Source: Alphaproteobacteria bacterium
GTDB taxonomy: Bacteria; Pseudomonadota; Alphaproteobacteria; JAQWUY01
Direction: 5' to 3'
Length of the DNA stretch: 64,000 nt
Assembly: GCA_965276005.1 (NCBI GenBank)
Contig: OZ254962.1
Location: 1,887,809-1,951,808 of the forward strand
The position numbers were made by a program, and so were the translations under genes. This document shows, in pieces, positions 36,657 to 47,051 of the stretch. The notes under the pieces were generated by a model that was not told where the DNA came from, did no database searches, and saw only the letters and a list, made by a program, of their open reading frames with translations. Positions within the stretch are counted from its first letter, which is position 1, and the number at the start of each line of letters is the position of its first letter.

Positions 36657-36731
36657 GCCGTCGTAGCTCAGTGGTAGAGCGCGTCATTGGTAATGACGAG
36701 GTCGGAAGTTCAATTCTTCTCGACGGCACCA
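36657..36731 (+). tRNA. tRNA-Thr (anticodon GGU), CCA encoded
   Basis: Acceptor stem GCCGTCG/CGACGGC, U8-A9, D-stem GCTC/GAGC, anticodon stem CGTCA/TGACG with loop TTGGTAA (anticodon GGT), T-arm GGAAG-TTCAATT-CTTCT, discriminator A, CCA. 75 nt. Confidence 0.9.
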
Positions 36732-38150: not shown

Positions 38151-38865
38151 GGGCTGTACCAGATAACTAGCCTAAATATTTTTTAGTCCACTGTTTTTTT
38201 TGTGATTTAAAACCACTGTGATTAAATCGCCACTCACATTCTTTCAAGTATAGCACGAAATTCTGCTTAGAAATACTATTATATGTACGCATATGGCGTT
38301 TAGCTTGGTTCCAAAAATTTTCAATGCCATTTATGTGATTATCACCATCTGCAAACTCTGTGCTATGGTTAATCCGCATATGGTGAAAATCTGTAACATC
38401 CAAAGCATTATATCCTTTCCAACCATCACTATATACGATACTATCAGGAACAACTTTGCTTTCAATAATTGGTATTAAAGTATCACCACTTGCATCAGGT
38501 ATCATTTGCGTATAAACCTTTTCGCCCCTTTTAAGTAAGCCAAATACAGGTGTTTTCGCCTTCGCACCCCGCCCCCTTTTTCCTTTACGGCTACCACCGA
38601 AATAACTCTCGTCAACTTCTATTTTACCACCAAAATAATTACTGCCTTGCTGTTCCATTTCATAGAAAATTATCTCTCTTAAACGATGAAAATAATATGC
38701 TGAGGTCTTATGATTAACACCTATCAATTCATTGGCACAACGAGCTGTCGTTCCTGCAACAAAGTGTTCAATTAATTGCTCTTGCTTATACCAACTTATC
38801 CGACTTTTTTTAAATAATCTATCCATAATAACAACCTATCATAAGTTAGTTATCTGGTACAGCCC
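38151..38865. mobile_element. IS1595-family insertion sequence (compact, ~715 bp) with 19-bp perfect terminal inverted repeats
   Basis: Left IR GGGCTGTACCAGATAACTA (38151-38169). Right IR is its reverse complement TAGTTATCTGGTACAGCCC (38847-38865). Encloses the single transposase ORF. Confidence 0.75.
38167..38826 (-). CDS. IS1595-family transposase (N-terminal zinc-ribbon-like region plus DDE domain)
   Basis: 219 aa. '…YSDGWKGYNALD…HMRINHSTEF…GIENFWNQAKRHM…' is the DDE_Tnp_IS1595 pattern. Confidence 0.8.
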   Translation of the reverse strand: MDRLFKKSRISWYKQEQLIEHFVAGTTARCANELIGVNHKTSAYYFHRLREIIFYEMEQQGSNYFGGKIEVDESYFGGSRKGKRGRGAKAKTPVFGLLKRGEKVYTQMIPDASGDTLIPIIESKVVPDSIVYSDGWKGYNALDVTDFHHMRINHSTEFADGDNHINGIENFWNQAKRHMRTYNSISKQNFVLYLKECEWRFNHSGFKSQKKQWTKKYLG

Positions 38866-38952: not shown

Positions 38953-39129
38953 CTAATTGCTTTGAGTTAAGTCTAATTCACCATCAGCAACGGCTAATAA
39001 CAAATTAAATACATAAACAGTTGGTTTTCTGCCTGATCCTTTTTCTAACACAGATATTAAATTTTCATCTACTAGTTTCCTCAGAATACTATTTGCGGTT
39101 TCCCTGCTCTTAATATCTGCAACTTCCAT
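38953..39129 (-). pseudogene. Remnant encoding a Fic-family-like C-terminal winged-helix segment
   Basis: 'SRETANSILRKLVDENLISVLEKGSGRKPTVYVF' matches the C-terminal wHTH pattern of Fic/DOC proteins. No Fic core upstream. The 5' part of track ORF 38953..39384 overlaps the cysJ remnant and looks spurious. Confidence 0.3.
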
Positions 39130-39238
39130 GAAGTTACTTGAATTGATAATTGGAAATCTAAAAAACGCATCCAATGCCCCGATAACAGATGGAGAGTGGG
39201 TTGTTTCAGTAAACTTTTGTTTCATCATTTCATGCGTT

Positions 39239-39616
39239 CTTAGAACCAATGCGTGTGGGGACAATTGGCTGTTTTTTGGCGATCGCACCGAAGCCAACGA
39301 TTTTTTATACAGTGAAACCTTAACCACATGGGAAAAACAAGGCAAACTGCGGCTGTCCTTGGCATGGTCCCGTGACCCTAACACCCCAAAAACCTATGTA
39401 CAAGACCTGATGTTACAACAGGGCGAAGACATTTTTAAACAACTTGAGAAGGGGGCATACTTTTACATTTGCGGTGATGCATCGAAAATGGCAAAAGATG
39501 TGGACGCCGCCTTATTAGAAATCGTATCGACACACGGAGCTATGGCAATAGAAAAAGCCACCGCATACATTAACGACCTAAAAAAGAATAAACGCTATGT
39601 GCGCGATGTGTATTAA
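39239..39616 (+). pseudogene. cysJ: 3' remnant of sulfite reductase (NADPH) flavoprotein gene cysJ (FAD/NADPH-binding C-terminus only)
   Basis: 'WLFFGDRTEANDFLY…YFYICGDASKMAKDVDAALLEIV…RYVRDVY*' reproduces the CysJ / cytochrome-P450-reductase C-terminal end (...RYQRDVY). The N-terminal ~430 aa are absent. Confidence 0.7.
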
Positions 39617-39637: not shown

Positions 39638-39659
39638 ACAAAAAAGTAATCAGACGACC
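39638..39659. repeat. Left copy of ~22-bp imperfect direct repeat flanking the MTase/DUF262-HNH cassette
   Basis: ACAAAAAAGTAATCAGACGACC versus the right copy ACAAAAACAGCAATCAGACGACC (42132-42154). The 12-mer AATCAGACGACC is shared perfectly. Confidence 0.7.
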
Positions 39660-39753: not shown

Positions 39754-40839
39754 TTATCTGCTAGATTTTCTACGATTGCAATCTTTGCATAACATTTGAC
39801 AGTTTTGTTCCACCGTTTTACCGCCCTGCGACCATGGGGTGATGTGATCGCCTTCCATTTGTTTAATGTCAAAGTGTTCGTTGCAGATTATACATATACC
39901 GTTTTGTTTTTGGTATACTCTTTGTTTTATTTGGGGAATAAAAGCCCTTATATTTAAATGTCGTTCGTCATGAGTTAGGATATAAGGATAGATACCCTTT
40001 TGATTTTGTACATCTTCGTCTTCAATAAGTTTTGATATTTCTTTTTCTAATTCTGTCGTATCATAAGTCTTATCTTTAAATTCATTATACAGATCCCCCC
40101 AATTTACACCTTTCATTATTTTAACTCGTTTTTCTATAAAAGTGCCTTTTACCCAAGTAATGACATTTTGAAAGTATTGCCATAAAGCAAGTGCATTAAG
40201 ATCATGCTGATGATTCGACATATATGGTTCAATATTTTTTTCTGAAATCCATTTTATTACTGTTTCTAAATAGTCTTGTCTAATAGCAGAGCCGTTCAAA
40301 TAATCATGTCCAATTTGATAGGCAGGACACCCATTTTTACTGAAATACCTTTTAGCATCGGTGACCCAAGAACCCGAATAAACAGCATTTCTTAATTCTT
40401 GTTCTGTTAATTTTTCGCCTGCTATGTTAATAGTTTGAAACCATTTTAATTTTTCACTATCTTTGCCGCTACAAATATAAACCATTAATTTATAATCTAA
40501 AATTTGCTGTTGTTCGTCCGATTGCAAATTATGAAAACTTCTTAAATTATAAGAAAAATCACCATTGATATATTGGCATAAGGATAGGGTTCTTTGTTGC
40601 CCATCTATAACTTCAAAAGTTCCATTCTCTTTAAGAGCCCAATACATGACATTTAATGGAAAATTGTTTGTTACAGTATTTATAACTGCGTCCCGTTGTG
40701 CGTCTTTATAGATAAACTCCCGTTGATAGGGAGGGCGAATATCTAACTTTCCACCATACCCTAAAATGCCATTCTCTTGGTTGTCTTCATATCCATCTGT
40801 TAGTTCACGAACGGTTATTTCTTTAAGTTCTATTTTCAT
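39754..40839 (-). CDS. DUF262 (ParB-like NTPase/nuclease, DGQQR motif) plus C-terminal HNH endonuclease domain protein
   Basis: 'IRPPYQREFIY', 'FEVIDGQQRTLSL' (DUF262 hallmarks). C-terminal 'CIICNEHFDIKQMEGDHITPWSQGGKTVEQNCQMLCKDCNRRK' is an HNH motif. Start overlaps the methyltransferase stop (ATGA). Confidence 0.75.
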   Translation of the reverse strand: MKIELKEITVRELTDGYEDNQENGILGYGGKLDIRPPYQREFIYKDAQRDAVINTVTNNFPLNVMYWALKENGTFEVIDGQQRTLSLCQYINGDFSYNLRSFHNLQSDEQQQILDYKLMVYICSGKDSEKLKWFQTINIAGEKLTEQELRNAVYSGSWVTDAKRYFSKNGCPAYQIGHDYLNGSAIRQDYLETVIKWISEKNIEPYMSNHQHDLNALALWQYFQNVITWVKGTFIEKRVKIMKGVNWGDLYNEFKDKTYDTTELEKEISKLIEDEDVQNQKGIYPYILTHDERHLNIRAFIPQIKQRVYQKQNGICIICNEHFDIKQMEGDHITPWSQGGKTVEQNCQMLCKDCNRRKSSR

Positions 40840-41930
40840 AATTTTTTATTCCTTATAATTATGCGTGCGTATATACTAGAATACAATGCACCAGTTTCAC
40901 AGTCCTTAAATGCAGGTAGTTTTTTATCTTTTGTGGGATTATAAAGTCTATATAAAGTCCCTTTTGCATTCATTGTATATATACCTGTTGATTTCCCGGT
41001 TTTTTTGTCTAAAATCTCCATTTTTCTGTTAGTATCAAATTCAATAGAGCCAACAATCCCCAATGCTATAATTTCAAATTGTTCGGGATTATATTTATCC
41101 ATAAAAGTAATAGGGACACCCATCTCACCAGAATAATCCATTGGAATATCTTTGGTTTTGTCGACATTGATTGCATTAAAATTTTCATATTTCGGGTACG
41201 ATTCAGGTTCATACATTTTATAAAGAATTAAATCTTCGTAACGAGACTTATATTCCAAGTTTGTAAACCAACGAACACCTTTAACTCGGATAAATTTATT
41301 ATTATTTTCATCTACTCTAAACCCTGACGCTTTTAATGGATAGTCCTTGGGAACTCCAAATTCTCTGTCGCCACTTTTTATACTTGCCCCTAACCATATT
41401 TTATTATCACGAATCAACGAAAAAATTTCCTTATAAGTGAGTGCATTTAAATTTCCGATAATTAAAAACTGTTTATCATATTCGATTAGTTGTGCAACAT
41501 ACTCTCGAAACAGTGAAAATGGGGGGTTGGTAACAATAATATCTGCTTGTTTTAAAATATCGATACATTCATTACTACGAAAATCACCATCGCCATCAAG
41601 ATAATGAACGCCTATCTCTTCTATATCGGGAACATTGTTGCCATTTTTATCACCATTGTATTCAAGATAAATGGCTTTTTCGCTATCATTTTGACTAAAA
41701 AAATCCCTATTTTGATTTTTGTAACAAATGGTTATGAGTTTTTTTAAGCCAAGATGTTCAAAGTTATAAGAAAAATAGTGAAAAAAATTACTTACTCGTG
41801 GGTCATCACAATTACAAAGAACAGTTTTACCTTTAAAATGTTCCTTGTAATGTTTCAATTCTTTTTCAATATCCGAAAGCTGCGTATAGAACTCGTCCTT
41901 TTTTTGCTTTTTTGCTTGCTGTAAACCCAC
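40836..41930 (-). CDS. DNA methyltransferase, N6-adenine/N4-cytosine class (NPPF motif IV), EcoRI-methylase-family-like N-terminus
   Basis: 'DIIVTNPPF' catalytic motif. N-terminal 'KKQKKDEFYTQLSDIEKELKHY' resembles the EcoRI-type adenine methyltransferase family. Annotated start is GTG; an upstream ATG with a GAGGA SD lies beyond the poly-G tract (see findings). Confidence 0.7.
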   Translation of the reverse strand: MGLQQAKKQKKDEFYTQLSDIEKELKHYKEHFKGKTVLCNCDDPRVSNFFHYFSYNFEHLGLKKLITICYKNQNRDFFSQNDSEKAIYLEYNGDKNGNNVPDIEEIGVHYLDGDGDFRSNECIDILKQADIIVTNPPFSLFREYVAQLIEYDKQFLIIGNLNALTYKEIFSLIRDNKIWLGASIKSGDREFGVPKDYPLKASGFRVDENNNKFIRVKGVRWFTNLEYKSRYEDLILYKMYEPESYPKYENFNAINVDKTKDIPMDYSGEMGVPITFMDKYNPEQFEIIALGIVGSIEFDTNRKMEILDKKTGKSTGIYTMNAKGTLYRLYNPTKDKKLPAFKDCETGALYSSIYARIIIRNKKL

Positions 41931-41940
41931 ATTTCTAGTG

Positions 41941-41955
41941 GGGGGGGGGGGGGGG
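41941..41955. repeat. G15-16 homopolymeric tract (poly-C on the MTase coding strand), 10-25 nt upstream of the MTase GTG start
   Basis: catttctagtGGGGGGGGGGGGGGG(G)taaat. The longest homopolymer in the window. Confidence 0.85.
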
Positions 41956-42131
41956 TAAATATTTGTTTTTGTTGACTATTTTGTGTCATTACGCTATCAA
42001 TTCCTCATATGTTAATTTATTATCAAAGCCCCATCAAGTAGGCTGTTCGTATGGTCAAGTGTTAGTTCACAATTTCTTGTTTGGTAGCAACACTGGTATT
42101 TTGGATCATAATATCCCTGCAAATCGTAAAC

Positions 42132-42154
42132 ACAAAAACAGCAATCAGACGACC
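42132..42154. repeat. Right copy of the direct repeat flanking the MTase/DUF262-HNH cassette
   Basis: ACAAAAACAGCAATCAGACGACC. Confidence 0.7.
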
Positions 42155-42181: not shown

Positions 42182-42775
42182 TCATGTAACAACATACTCG
42201 GATATGGCAATAATCACAGACACTAGCCCAGCGGTCAAGAATATTGTGCGATAACTTGAAATATGGATGTCTCGTTTGGTATCTTTGCGTAGCTGTTCTA
42301 TATCCTTACGCAAATCAACAATTTCCCTACGCAGATCGGCAATTTCTCTGTGAATATTTGCAATTTCCTCACGCACATCTGCAATTTCTTTTTCGGTTTC
42401 CACCCTTAATTTTGCAATTTCCTCATGGACATTTGTAATTTCTCTATGAATATTTGCAATTTCTTGCTTAGTCTCCACTCGTAAGCTTTCAATCTCTTTA
42501 TGGATATTTGCAATTTCTTTATGCACATCCGCAACCTCCCGTTTGCTATCGATACGCATTTGTTCTATATCCTTGTGGATAATAGCTATTTCTTTTTGAA
42601 TTTCTGCTACATCTTGTTTGGTAGCAACATTGGTGTTGGCAACCACCGCATAAGCAAGTGCCTTAGCATTTTGTTCTGACATGCCCATTCGTATCAGTTC
42701 TTGGGCGGTGCTGTATGTATCTGCAGTAGCAATTTGTAGTTCCATAGATCTTCTCCTTAGATGCGATTTTACCAC
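42182..42775 (-). CDS. Coiled-coil protein with tandem 11-aa (hendecad) repeats and C-terminal TM anchor
   Basis: Repeats KEIANIHKEIE / REITNVHEEIA / EEIANIHREIA. C-terminal hydrophobic 'IFLTAGLVSVIIAI'. The DNA carries the matching 33-bp tandem repeats (about 42290-42600). Confidence 0.5.
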   Translation of the reverse strand: MVKSHLRRRSMELQIATADTYSTAQELIRMGMSEQNAKALAYAVVANTNVATKQDVAEIQKEIAIIHKDIEQMRIDSKREVADVHKEIANIHKEIESLRVETKQEIANIHREITNVHEEIAKLRVETEKEIADVREEIANIHREIADLRREIVDLRKDIEQLRKDTKRDIHISSYRTIFLTAGLVSVIIAISEYVVT

Positions 42776-45177: not shown

Positions 45178-45315
45178 GTGGTTTTTTTTATGGTGAAAGT
45201 TAAACACACTGTAAACAATATTTGACCAAAAATGCTTTTTTAGATAAAAAAATGACAAAATTTCGTTAAAACATGCTACTATTTAAAAAATGTATTGTTA
45301 AAAAAGAGTAATATT

Positions 45316-46482
45316 ATGTTAAAAAAGGTAAGTGTTTCTAACTATCATAGCATAGGACAACAAGCAGTTGAAATGTGTTTTGATTCTGAACTACCCATTT
45401 ATATTGTGATGGGGGGGAATGCATCGGGCAAGACAACTTTATTAAAAGCTATTTCCTTTATCTTTTGGTTTATGAATTCTGATGAACAACATGAGAAAGA
45501 CGAAATGGTGTTTTTCCCTCATGTACTGCATAAAACATCACCCTCTGTATTTGCAATAGAATATACAGATGGCAAAGCCAAATATCAATATCAACTTGAA
45601 TTCAAAAATGGTACTTTAGTCAGAGAAGAATTTTCAAAACATGTGACTAGGGGATATTCAAGAGTGTATTCTGTGTTTCGTACAAAAAACAATGTAGAAT
45701 ATAAACTTTCAAACGCATTAAAATCAGTCCTTAATGAAAATGATAAAGTGCGTTATGGCAAGTTGAAAAATTGTTCGTTTTACAGATTTTTGCAAAATAC
45801 GGGGTATTTTGATTTATTGAATATCGATGTCAATTTTGTAAAAAATATTGTGAGTAATTCTAGTAATATTGGGCGTCAAATCCAACAAGATGGAGTAAAC
45901 ATGTTTTTTAGCTTAGCCAATATATTACAAGAAAATAAAAAATTGCAGGACTTTTTAATTAACCATTTGCAAATGTTCGATTTCAATATATCAAAATTTG
46001 TTTTTGATGACAAGCAAGCACTAAGAAATGATAAAGGAGAACTAGAAACTGTAACGACTACAAGCTTGGTTCATAAAACTGAAAGTTCTAAGGCAACACT
46101 ACCATTGCTCTTTGAATCAGAGGGAACTTATGCAGTGATACCGTTTTTGATCAATTTGTATGAGTTGATAAAAAATGGCGGCGTTATGATATGGGATGAG
46201 CTAGAAAACAGTACACATCCATTGGTCGCCAAAAAATTTATATCTGTATTAAAACAATATGTACAACATCATAACATACAAATAATTTTTGCCAGCCATA
46301 TGAATGCGTTACTGAATGAATTTGAGAAGAAAAGTATATTTTTTGTGGAAAAAACCGATCTGTTGGAAACAGATGTTTATACATTAAATGATGTCGAAGG
46401 TGTGCGTAAAGATGAAAATTTTGCTGATAAGTACATTGGGGGGGTATATGGTGGCACTCCAGATATTATGGGAGTTGCCTAA
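45316..46482 (+). CDS. ABC-type AAA_21/AAA_15-like ATPase (AbiLi-like component of an abortive-infection/OLD-like pair)
   Basis: Walker A 'GGNASGKTTLLKAI', Walker B 'IWDELENSTHP', H-loop 'FASHMN'. Likely start is the second Met (MLKKVSVSNYHSIG), the typical N-terminus of these ATPases. Low GC (~30%). Confidence 0.7.
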   Translation: MLKKVSVSNYHSIGQQAVEMCFDSELPIYIVMGGNASGKTTLLKAISFIFWFMNSDEQHEKDEMVFFPHVLHKTSPSVFAIEYTDGKAKYQYQLEFKNGTLVREEFSKHVTRGYSRVYSVFRTKNNVEYKLSNALKSVLNENDKVRYGKLKNCSFYRFLQNTGYFDLLNIDVNFVKNIVSNSSNIGRQIQQDGVNMFFSLANILQENKKLQDFLINHLQMFDFNISKFVFDDKQALRNDKGELETVTTTSLVHKTESSKATLPLLFESEGTYAVIPFLINLYELIKNGGVMIWDELENSTHPLVAKKFISVLKQYVQHHNIQIIFASHMNALLNEFEKKSIFFVEKTDLLETDVYTLNDVEGVRKDENFADKYIGGVYGGTPDIMGVA

Positions 46483-47051
46483 TGGGTAAAAAAAGAAATA
46501 GAAAGACAGGGTATTTGTTTGTACTTGAAGGTGATGATGAGGAAAAATTATTGTGTGTATTTAAAAAGCTATATACAATACATAAAAAACACATTAGTTT
46601 TAAAGAAGTATTTGCCAAGGGAGGCGATCCAGATTCCATTATTACCTCTGCTTGTCACAAAAAGGATACAGTAGACTTTACATATGTATTATTAGACAAT
46701 GACATACCTATGAAATCAGATAATAAGACACTCTGGCAAGCTTGGACTATAGGAGGGACGCCTATTAATGGGAAAACACCATCACAACTTGTTGTTCTAA
46801 ATAAGAACGATAGAAATCCAATCTTAATAGTTTCTGAACCATTAGCTATGGAAAATACATTATTGGATTTGTTTTCTATTGAGGTAACTGCTGATAACAC
46901 AAAGGATTTAAAAACGCAGGTCAGAAACCATCTTGGGACAAATTGGGACAAAAAAATTACTCGAAAAATGTTAGAATCATCAACTAACTCTGTCATTCAA
47001 GAATTGGTGAAAATATTTCGAGAAATAGAAAACATTTCGCTCAGAAATTAA
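46482..47051 (+). CDS. RloB/DUF4276-like Toprim-fold protein (AbiLii-like partner)
   Basis: N-terminal '[15 protein letters not shown]' (RloB-type 'l.v.EGe.tE' motif) and 'LLDNDIP' (DxD). Start overlaps the ATPase stop (TAATG). Confidence 0.55.

Follow-up and report, generated by a model that had tools for sequence, protein, structure and literature searches.

The methylase M.EcoRI is a 326-residue enzyme that makes GAm6ATTC (PMC4081073), and SspE acts as the restriction component in a modification system of its host (PMC8713573, PMC12707154). In Helicobacter pylori, HP1471, HP1522 and HP0464 are phase-variable restriction-modification (R-M) genes with homopolymeric tracts, and G/C tracts of this kind in R-M genes, Type II components included, are an established phase-variation device (PMC4209511). 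We describe a locus that resembles each of these systems in part: a methylase gene and a nuclease gene in a 64,000-nucleotide stretch of an uncultured alphaproteobacterial genome (contig OZ254962.1, positions 1,887,809 to 1,951,808; hereafter the window), with a run of 16 cytosines (C16) near the 5' end of the methylase. The two genes form an R-M cassette that was gained horizontally, in a variable islet bounded by tRNA-Thr and mntR/miaA. The methylase is probably switched on and off by slippage at C16 in this mobile cassette, a reading in which our belief slightly outweighs our doubt.

The methylase open reading frame (ORF; 40836-41930) and the nuclease ORF (39754-40839) are co-directional on the minus strand and have in common the ATGA at 40836-40839. 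This overlap had been noted in an earlier first-pass annotation made by a model from the sequence alone, as had the low guanine-plus-cytosine (GC) content of the two genes, which we measured at 31.3% and 33.0% against 44.3% across the window. Low GC, an adjacent copy of the insertion sequence (IS) IS1595 and neighboring gene remnants point to a foreign origin for the cassette. Its features, in window coordinates, are:

41940-41955, minus strand: poly-C16 on the coding strand (G16 on the plus strand), an exact count from the assembly
41931-41989, minus strand: ancestral 5' coding leader of the methylase, from ATG 41987-41989 to just before the GTG, enclosing the tract
42001-42006, minus strand: Shine-Dalgarno sequence GAGGAA, 11 nt upstream of ATG 41989, with AAGGAA at the same place in the conspecific contig L082
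41855-41989, minus strand: 44-residue out-of-frame ORF, read from ATG 41989 at C16 across GTG 41930
40836-41930, minus strand: methylase body, 364 residues from a GTG start at 41930, its stop overlapping the nuclease start (ATGA)
39754-40839, minus strand: nuclease gene (R), 361 residues from an ATG at 40839, with an N-terminal DUF262/GmrSD_N domain of ParB-Srx type and a C-terminal zinc-ribbon HNH domain

The C16 tract is a strong statistical outlier. It is the longest homopolymer in the window, followed by runs of A14 and G11, and GGGGGGGG words occur 17 times in the window against 3.1 +/- 2.0 in dinucleotide-preserving shuffles, an excess due to the G16 and G11 runs. What the protein becomes from ATG 41989 depends on the length of the tract. 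At C14, C17 or C20 the ATG is fused to the methylase and yields a full-length protein with a TP(4-6)T leader; at C15 or C18 the reading stops at a TAG 4 nt before GTG 41930; and at C16 or C19 it gives a 44-residue peptide ending at 41855. The first-pass annotation had recognized the tract as the longest homopolymer and had correctly placed an upstream ATG with a GAGGAA out of frame at the assembled length, and some of its other statements about this region need correction. It gave the tract as 15 to 16 bases, for which our recount is exactly 16. It held that a change of -1 or +2 would restore the fusion; at C16 the changes are +1 or -2 (C17 or C14), its arithmetic fitting a count of 15, and the N-terminal peptide it proposed, MTQNSQQKQIFTPPPPPTRN-, is the product of C17. 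It ended the unit at 41960, short of the true 5' end (ATG 41989, Shine-Dalgarno to 42006). It placed the tract 5' of the methylase start, which holds for the GTG ORF, but from the ancestral ATG the tract is intragenic.

The case for that ancestral start comes from comparison with two relatives. The first, L082, is a 23.9-kb metagenomic contig with the same flanking genes at 97.8-99.4% DNA identity. Its methylase is a 91-residue N-terminal fragment, cut at residue ~88 beside an IS1595-family fragment that differs from the IS1595 of the window, and its nuclease gene is absent. The L082 fragment starts at the homologous ATG, preceded by AAGGAA, and reads in frame as MTQNNQQKQILTPTKSANLCQAKKEKNDEFYTQ. 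A more distant relative, L085, starts MTSNTQNK... (MTSNTQNKKLRQAKK...) at the equivalent position. In-frame use of the same ATG and Shine-Dalgarno site in L082, together with the conserved start in L085, marks ATG 41989 as the ancestral methylase start. L082 has CTCCC where the window has C16, and the distance from the ATG to a conserved CAAGCA is 71 nt in the window versus 60 nt in L082; the window thus has 11 extra nt and is out of frame. Compared with M.EcoRI and other relatives, the two alleles of the lineage have in common a leader insertion of 9-13 residues, which encloses the tract. On these comparisons we regard the tract as intragenic, within a lineage-specific leader segment that tolerates length change, and the assembled allele as out of frame.

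Our preferred reading, slippage at C16, follows from this arrangement. A 16-bp poly-C in a dispensable leader, between the conserved ATG with its Shine-Dalgarno sequence and the first conserved motif, is intrinsically prone to slipped-strand gain and loss. The in-frame lengths C14, C17 and C20 would produce a full-length methylase with a short poly-proline leader, and at C16, with the ancestral start out of frame, a GTG lacking a Shine-Dalgarno sequence would be the sole start remaining. Methylase output, and hence protective or regulatory methylation, would then vary stochastically from cell to cell. The locus has two of the three sequence-level marks of a contingency locus, a long repeat inside coding sequence and a frame, read from the authentic start, that toggles with the length of this repeat; the third would be observed variation in length. 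The slipped-strand switch suggested by the first-pass annotation stands as regards this classical frame-breaking arrangement. The length heterogeneity that it also implied was not seen, and both the other allele and the 81 family loci described below are free of the tract.

The same 11-nt difference also bears on an assembly miscount, in which the true or majority tract would be 17 (or 14), the methylase in frame and the R-M cassette constitutively active. One extra C would turn the difference into a clean 12-nt in-frame insertion, and a working methylase would explain the fully intact nuclease. The source assembly is a single 2.97-Mb contig and so probably derives from long reads, and 16-base homopolymers are the hardest positions to call. 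Consensus quality is nonetheless high: the window and L082 differ by two 1-nt indels in ~11.5 kb of shared flank, neither within a long homopolymer, which makes a gross homopolymer error in the source assembly unlikely. Moreover, a miscount would alter the current state of the site and not its nature, as the tract would still be slippage-prone. We consider this explanation unlikely, though it deserves to be taken seriously.

The frame analysis, with its three distinct states, also suits a form of leader control in which the methylase is translated from GTG 41930 and tract length in an upstream leader ORF tunes its expression. At C15 or C18, termination at the TAG 4 nt before the GTG would permit reinitiation, whereas at C16 the leader ORF would overrun and occlude the GTG; RNA-polymerase or ribosome slippage on the tract may add some leaky in-frame product. 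The GTG ORF alone covers the Pfam methylase profile from position 2 and retains the family-conserved L-x-x-A-K-K-x-K-K-DEFYTQ block, typical family members have just 12-20 residues before DEFYTQ, and leader control would explain why an intact nuclease is tolerated at C16. However, there is no Shine-Dalgarno-like sequence ahead of GTG 41930 (CCCCACTAGAAAT), the upstream ATG and its Shine-Dalgarno sequence are conserved in both alleles of the lineage, and reinitiation and slippage enter this scheme by inference only. We judge it rather improbable.

The other long runs of the window lie elsewhere. The G11 run (20928-20938; C11 on the minus strand) stands just after the stop of a 1684-residue TPS-domain/FG-GAP (TpsA-like) protein; we considered and rejected it as a second contingency tract, as CCCCCCCCCCCTCCCC...GGGGACGGGGGG can form a C-rich/G-rich hairpin that is probably a terminator. 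The A14 run (26131-26144; T14 on the minus strand) lies in the intergenic stretch that parts an NDK gene from the TpsA-like gene, ~125 nt ahead of the putative start of the latter, and could be a promoter-spacer or UP-element tract.

We assign the methylase to the gamma-class N6-adenine methyltransferases of the EcoRI family. It matches Pfam PF13651 (EcoRI_methylase) at 5e-142 (473.6 bits against a cut-off of 26.4; profile positions 2-345 of 345) and the PADLOC model MTase_II PDLC03297 over residues 3-291 (6.5e-122), and carries DEFYTQ at 41880-41897 (residue 12) and NPPF at 41517-41528 (TNPPF from residue 135). The first-pass annotation had remarked on an EcoRI-methylase-like N-terminus with DEFYTQ; the motif is present and the likeness is wider, at 56% identity between residues 3-288 and residues 10-295 of the 326 of M.EcoRI, for which our reference was the gene beside "type-2 restriction enzyme EcoRI" on a 5.6-kb Escherichia coli plasmid. 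The final ~75 residues do not align with M.EcoRI. Across loci L001-L081, the C-terminal ~35-75 residues of the methylase (~290-364) are the sole poorly conserved part of either protein; many tblastn matches end near residue 290, and M.EcoRI diverges there too. This variable region may be a specificity or partner-contact module.

From its family, the methylase would be expected to make N6-methyladenine (m6A) within a short defined site. We tried palindrome avoidance as a proxy for its specificity and found it uninformative for GAATTC and CAATTG, with no significant avoidance of GAATTC in the window (5 observed versus 6.5 expected). Two other palindromes are strongly avoided under a fourth-order Markov model of the whole window, GATATC (3 observed versus 23.7 expected) and GTTAAC (1 versus 11.3), which suggests present or past EcoRV-like and HpaI-like restriction in the host.

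The nuclease matches PF03235 (GmrSD_N, DUF262) at 5e-18 and PF01844 (HNH) at 1e-14, so that the domain calls of the first-pass annotation for both proteins proved right. A DGQQR motif lies at 40591-40605 (from residue 79), and the C-terminus is an HNH domain of PF01844/PF14279 type with CxxC pairs, in the pattern CxxC...DH...N...CxxC (CIIC 39874-39894, DH 39832-39852, N...CKDCN 39766-39804). There was no Pfam match to PF07510 (DUF1524) in the nuclease. The PADLOC model REase_II PDLC03418 matches it full-length (1.1e-129; 1-360 against 1-371 of 372). The GmrSD-like type IV, NsnA and PD-T4-2 models of the same collection give single-domain, weak matches: the type IV mREase model covers the HNH region only (3e-6) and NsnA the DUF262 region only (2e-26). 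All 129 columns that are invariant in a 40-sequence family alignment are kept. More than 8000 relatives were found at E <= 1e-30, the best being 71-80% identical full-length and nearly all having 360-367 residues, and they bear generic names (DUF262 domain-containing, GmrSD restriction endonuclease domain-containing, HNH endonuclease family). The AlphaFold model is of moderate quality (predicted local distance difference test, pLDDT, 65; predicted template modeling score, pTM, 0.45; middle region below 50), and a Foldseek search with it returned no match at E <= 0.001 and no full-length analogue. Weaker fold matches link the HNH domain to 4h9d and McrA and the N-terminus to ParB, Noc and Srx (sulfiredoxin); these weakly corroborate the ParB/Srx and HNH assignment, with which they are consistent without being decisive. 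We infer that the nuclease would cut DNA without the methylase's mark. In the literature that we searched, we found no biochemical description of this DUF262-HNH family or of its methylase cassette, no characterized DUF262-HNH Type II enzyme and no EcoRI-family methylase paired with DUF262.

We then took a comparative approach to the pair itself, using 81 family loci: 80 with a methylase relative, found in a scan of one genome per species, and L001. Their hosts span more than 10 phyla, including Bacteroidota, Verrucomicrobiota, Chloroflexota, Spirochaetota, Candidate Phyla Radiation (CPR) phyla, Campylobacterota, Actinomycetota, an archaeon and others. A nuclease homologue, full or truncated by a contig end, lies downstream on the same strand in 73 of these 81 methylase-anchored loci, and several of the other eight end too soon to judge. 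The gap between the genes is at most 15 nt in ~40 loci, and nine have the identical 4-nt overlap. In ~20 loci, 0.7-3.5 kb of unrelated genes stand between them (transposase, Fic, toxin-antitoxin genes, ATPases and coiled-coil proteins); we rejected an additional conserved gene in this position, as the inserts are mutually unrelated. Anchoring on the nuclease gave the same picture: every sample inspected had a methylase upstream, with a 350-residue EcoRI-family methylase directly upstream, a 4-nt overlap and an integrase or resolvase beside the pair. Plasmids also bear this pair, with examples from Chryseobacterium, Macrococcoides, Aeromonas, Sulfitobacter, Gordonia, Variovorax, Enterococcus, Ligilactobacillus and others (Bacteroidota, Bacillota, Actinomycetota and Pseudomonadota). 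We conclude from this gene-neighborhood evidence that the pair is a very widespread mobile cassette, with DUF262-HNH as the constant partner of this methylase clade. The view of the first-pass annotation that such a layout is not standard for Type II is refuted by the 73 of 81 loci, the plasmids, the nuclease-anchored samples and the matches to PADLOC Type II REase and MTase models. In gene content, the pair fits the definition of a Type II R-M system, and we would describe it as an ordinary R-M cassette with a plausible contingency tract.

Several observations weigh against switching by slippage. Tract-length polymorphism was not seen, and the searched collections hold a single tract-bearing allele: no further one was found in Joint Genome Institute (JGI) metagenomes (two DNA patterns), viral contigs (one pattern) or protein searches. 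The sister strain represented by L082 is without the tract, and an IS-associated deletion has destroyed its cassette. None of the 81 homologous loci has a 5' homopolymer or other 5' repeat, an unrelated G9 standing 149 nt upstream in L053, and there is thus no sign of recurrent selection for switching in the methylase family. A one-base error in a 16-base homopolymer is possible, so that the assembled length does not fix the ON or OFF state. Finally, turning the methylase OFF beside an intact, separately initiated Type II nuclease should be self-toxic, which argues against a clean OFF state. The tension between an intact nuclease and an OFF methylase keeps alive consensus error, leaky or alternative initiation, decay and a methylase-dependent nuclease.

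Decay would mean that the cassette is being lost from the species, with the frameshift a fixed lesion in a methylase pseudogene and the tract without any switching role. The destroyed cassette of the sister strain, with its methylase cut next to an IS1595-family fragment and its nuclease gone, speaks for decay, and the islet of the window contains other gene remnants and a complete IS1595. A methylase broken by a frameshift or stop codon stands beside an intact nuclease at L017, at L063 and on the Chryseobacterium taklimakanense plasmid L090 (NZ_CP034172.1, 1501-3516). Apart from the tract, however, both ORFs of the window are full-length with all family-invariant residues, a Type II system that loses its methylase ahead of its nuclease does so in the lethal order, and an 11-nt expansion to pure C16 is atypical of a random inactivating lesion. 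Decay thus strikes us as improbable.

A classical Type II system would not be expected to show broken methylases beside intact nucleases unless the host is protected by another methylase or the nuclease needs its partner. Conceivably, then, the DUF262-HNH protein is not an autonomous Type II endonuclease and depends on, or is licensed by, the methylase or its m6A mark. The two might act as a physical complex, in the way that Res relies on Mod in Type III systems, or a DUF262 NTPase (nucleoside triphosphatase) might sense self-methylation as SspE senses phosphorothioate; in either case, methylase OFF would be non-lethal and the whole defense would be switched. The intact nuclease beside a frame-shifted methylase here, and beside the broken ones at the three loci just named, is a hint in this direction. 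Broken or absent nuclease genes are about as frequent in the family as broken methylases, the cases being too few to inform, and for this reason such loci count as a hint only. We hold methylase dependence to be a long shot.

A phasevarion is a further alternative, in which methylase ON and OFF states rewire a regulon while transcriptional or translational polarity co-silences the nuclease. The tract is placed within 5' coding sequence much as it is in phase-variable mod genes, and the ATGA overlap here and in nine other loci and precedents in other bacteria also speak for a phasevarion. The tract is, however, unique to one strain, and the nuclease gene has its own Shine-Dalgarno sequence, AAGGAA, 9 nt upstream of its ATG. 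The ~20 loci with 0.7-3.5 kb between the genes indicate that the nuclease needs no coupling to the methylase. Polar co-silencing is therefore not established, given an intact nuclease with its own AAGGAA and relatives that often lie kilobases from the methylase. We regard a phasevarion as very improbable.

Beyond the cassette, the islet runs in the order tRNA-Thr, DUF4143 ATPase, IS1595-family element, gene remnants, nuclease gene, methylase gene and coiled-coil gene, followed by mntR, miaA and then gidA/gidB/parAB. Its further features are:

36657-36731: tRNA-Thr, at the islet edge
38151-38865: complete IS1595-family element with 24-nt inverted repeats and a 219-residue transposase (Pfam and repeat analysis)
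38953-39616: gene remnants after IS1595, including a C-terminal NAD_binding_1 fragment of a flavoprotein reductase
39640-39659: downstream copy of a 20-nt imperfect direct repeat, AAAAAAGTAATCAGACGACC, ~95 nt past the nuclease stop (repeat family D8)
42135-42154: upstream copy of the 20-nt imperfect direct repeat, AAAACAGCAATCAGACGACC (repeat family D8)

The two 20-nt repeats flank the 2.5-kb cassette and mark both of its edges, the upstream copy overlapping a terminator-like hairpin (42157-42140) that ends the preceding coiled-coil gene. Neisseria-type DNA uptake sequences (DUS) were considered for DUS-like GGTCGTCTGA motifs, whose only two occurrences fall at the cassette edges. A search of the window for over-represented 9- to 12-mers, as uptake sequences would give, found none. 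MiaA, encoded 1.5 kb from the cassette, has alphaproteobacterial proteins as its best named relatives (40-49% identity) and one near-identical sequence in the searched collection. These homologies make the host an alphaproteobacterium, and we therefore rejected the uptake-sequence reading.

The coiled-coil gene has a repetitive structure of its own. It encodes a 197-residue protein (42182-42775) with about ten 21-nt-periodic repeats at 42298-42613, and a 26-nt repeat is found both in its 5' part (42612-42637) and just upstream of the methylase (42075-42100). The sister strain lacks the 537 nt between the two 26-nt copies, which joins the coiled-coil N-terminus to a short ORF that ends in a TAA overlapping the methylase ATG (TAATG). 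At a distance of 2 kb from the cassette there is a second variable islet (45295-47051), with a gene pair of ~30% GC that encodes an AAA_21/AAA_15 ATPase (395 residues) and a 189-residue protein without a Pfam match. The same site in L082 (5476-6814) holds SocA_Panacea and DUF2971 genes, in surrounding flanks that are 98-99% identical. It looks like a defense-gene swap hotspot near gidA/parAB.

If slippage at C16 is confirmed, a Type II methylase of an uncultured alphaproteobacterium would prove to be under a contingency-type switch, away from the host-adapted pathogens in which such switches are usual. With long reads, tract length and m6A could be phased on one molecule, for a clean natural experiment. 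The cassette of an M.EcoRI-like methylase with a DUF262-HNH nuclease is extremely common on mobile DNA and already recognized by PADLOC Type II models, and its recognition site, NTP requirement and methylase dependence are easily testable. Were methylase dependence to prove true, this abundant cassette (>8000 relatives) would represent an uncharacterized class of NTP-dependent restriction based on m6A, for which the C16 allele would be a natural all-or-none switch.

Compared with known systems, the nuclease is closest in domain plan to the DUF262 + DUF1524 enzymes GmrSD, BrxU and SspE, with which it shares an N-terminal DUF262 domain with DGQQR and a C-terminal His-Me finger nuclease. It differs in that its C-terminus is a canonical zinc-ribbon HNH (PF01844) and not DUF1524, and in being much shorter, at 361 residues. 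GmrSD and BrxU are stand-alone modification-dependent enzymes, whereas the cassette nuclease almost always comes directly after a cognate m6A methylase. On its domains and neighborhood, it thus lacks two defining features of GmrSD-type enzymes, the DUF1524 domain and stand-alone status.

With the phase-variable R-M genes of H. pylori, the locus shares a long G/C homopolymer in R-M coding sequence whose length decides whether the full-length reading is made. It is unlike them in that the tract is known from one assembled allele and in that its host, an uncultured alphaproteobacterium, is no classic contingency-locus organism. In contrast to the Type III mod phasevarions, the tract here lies in the methylase gene of a system whose nuclease is separate. 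Switching a methylase beside a separate nuclease raises the problem of self-toxicity, from which Type III and Type IIG systems are free.

The EcoRI R-M system is matched by the 56% identical methylase, with DEFYTQ and NPPF in the same order, and by a two-gene Type II layout on mobile DNA. The partner is different, DUF262+HNH here against the EcoRI-type endonuclease that the annotation of the E. coli plasmid places beside M.EcoRI, and so is the gene order, methylase then nuclease here and nuclease then methylase on that plasmid. As the alignment with M.EcoRI does not extend into the C-terminal ~75 residues of the methylase, the recognition sites of the two enzymes may differ. For the present, we see in this locus an ordinary mobile R-M system that contains one hypermutable site.

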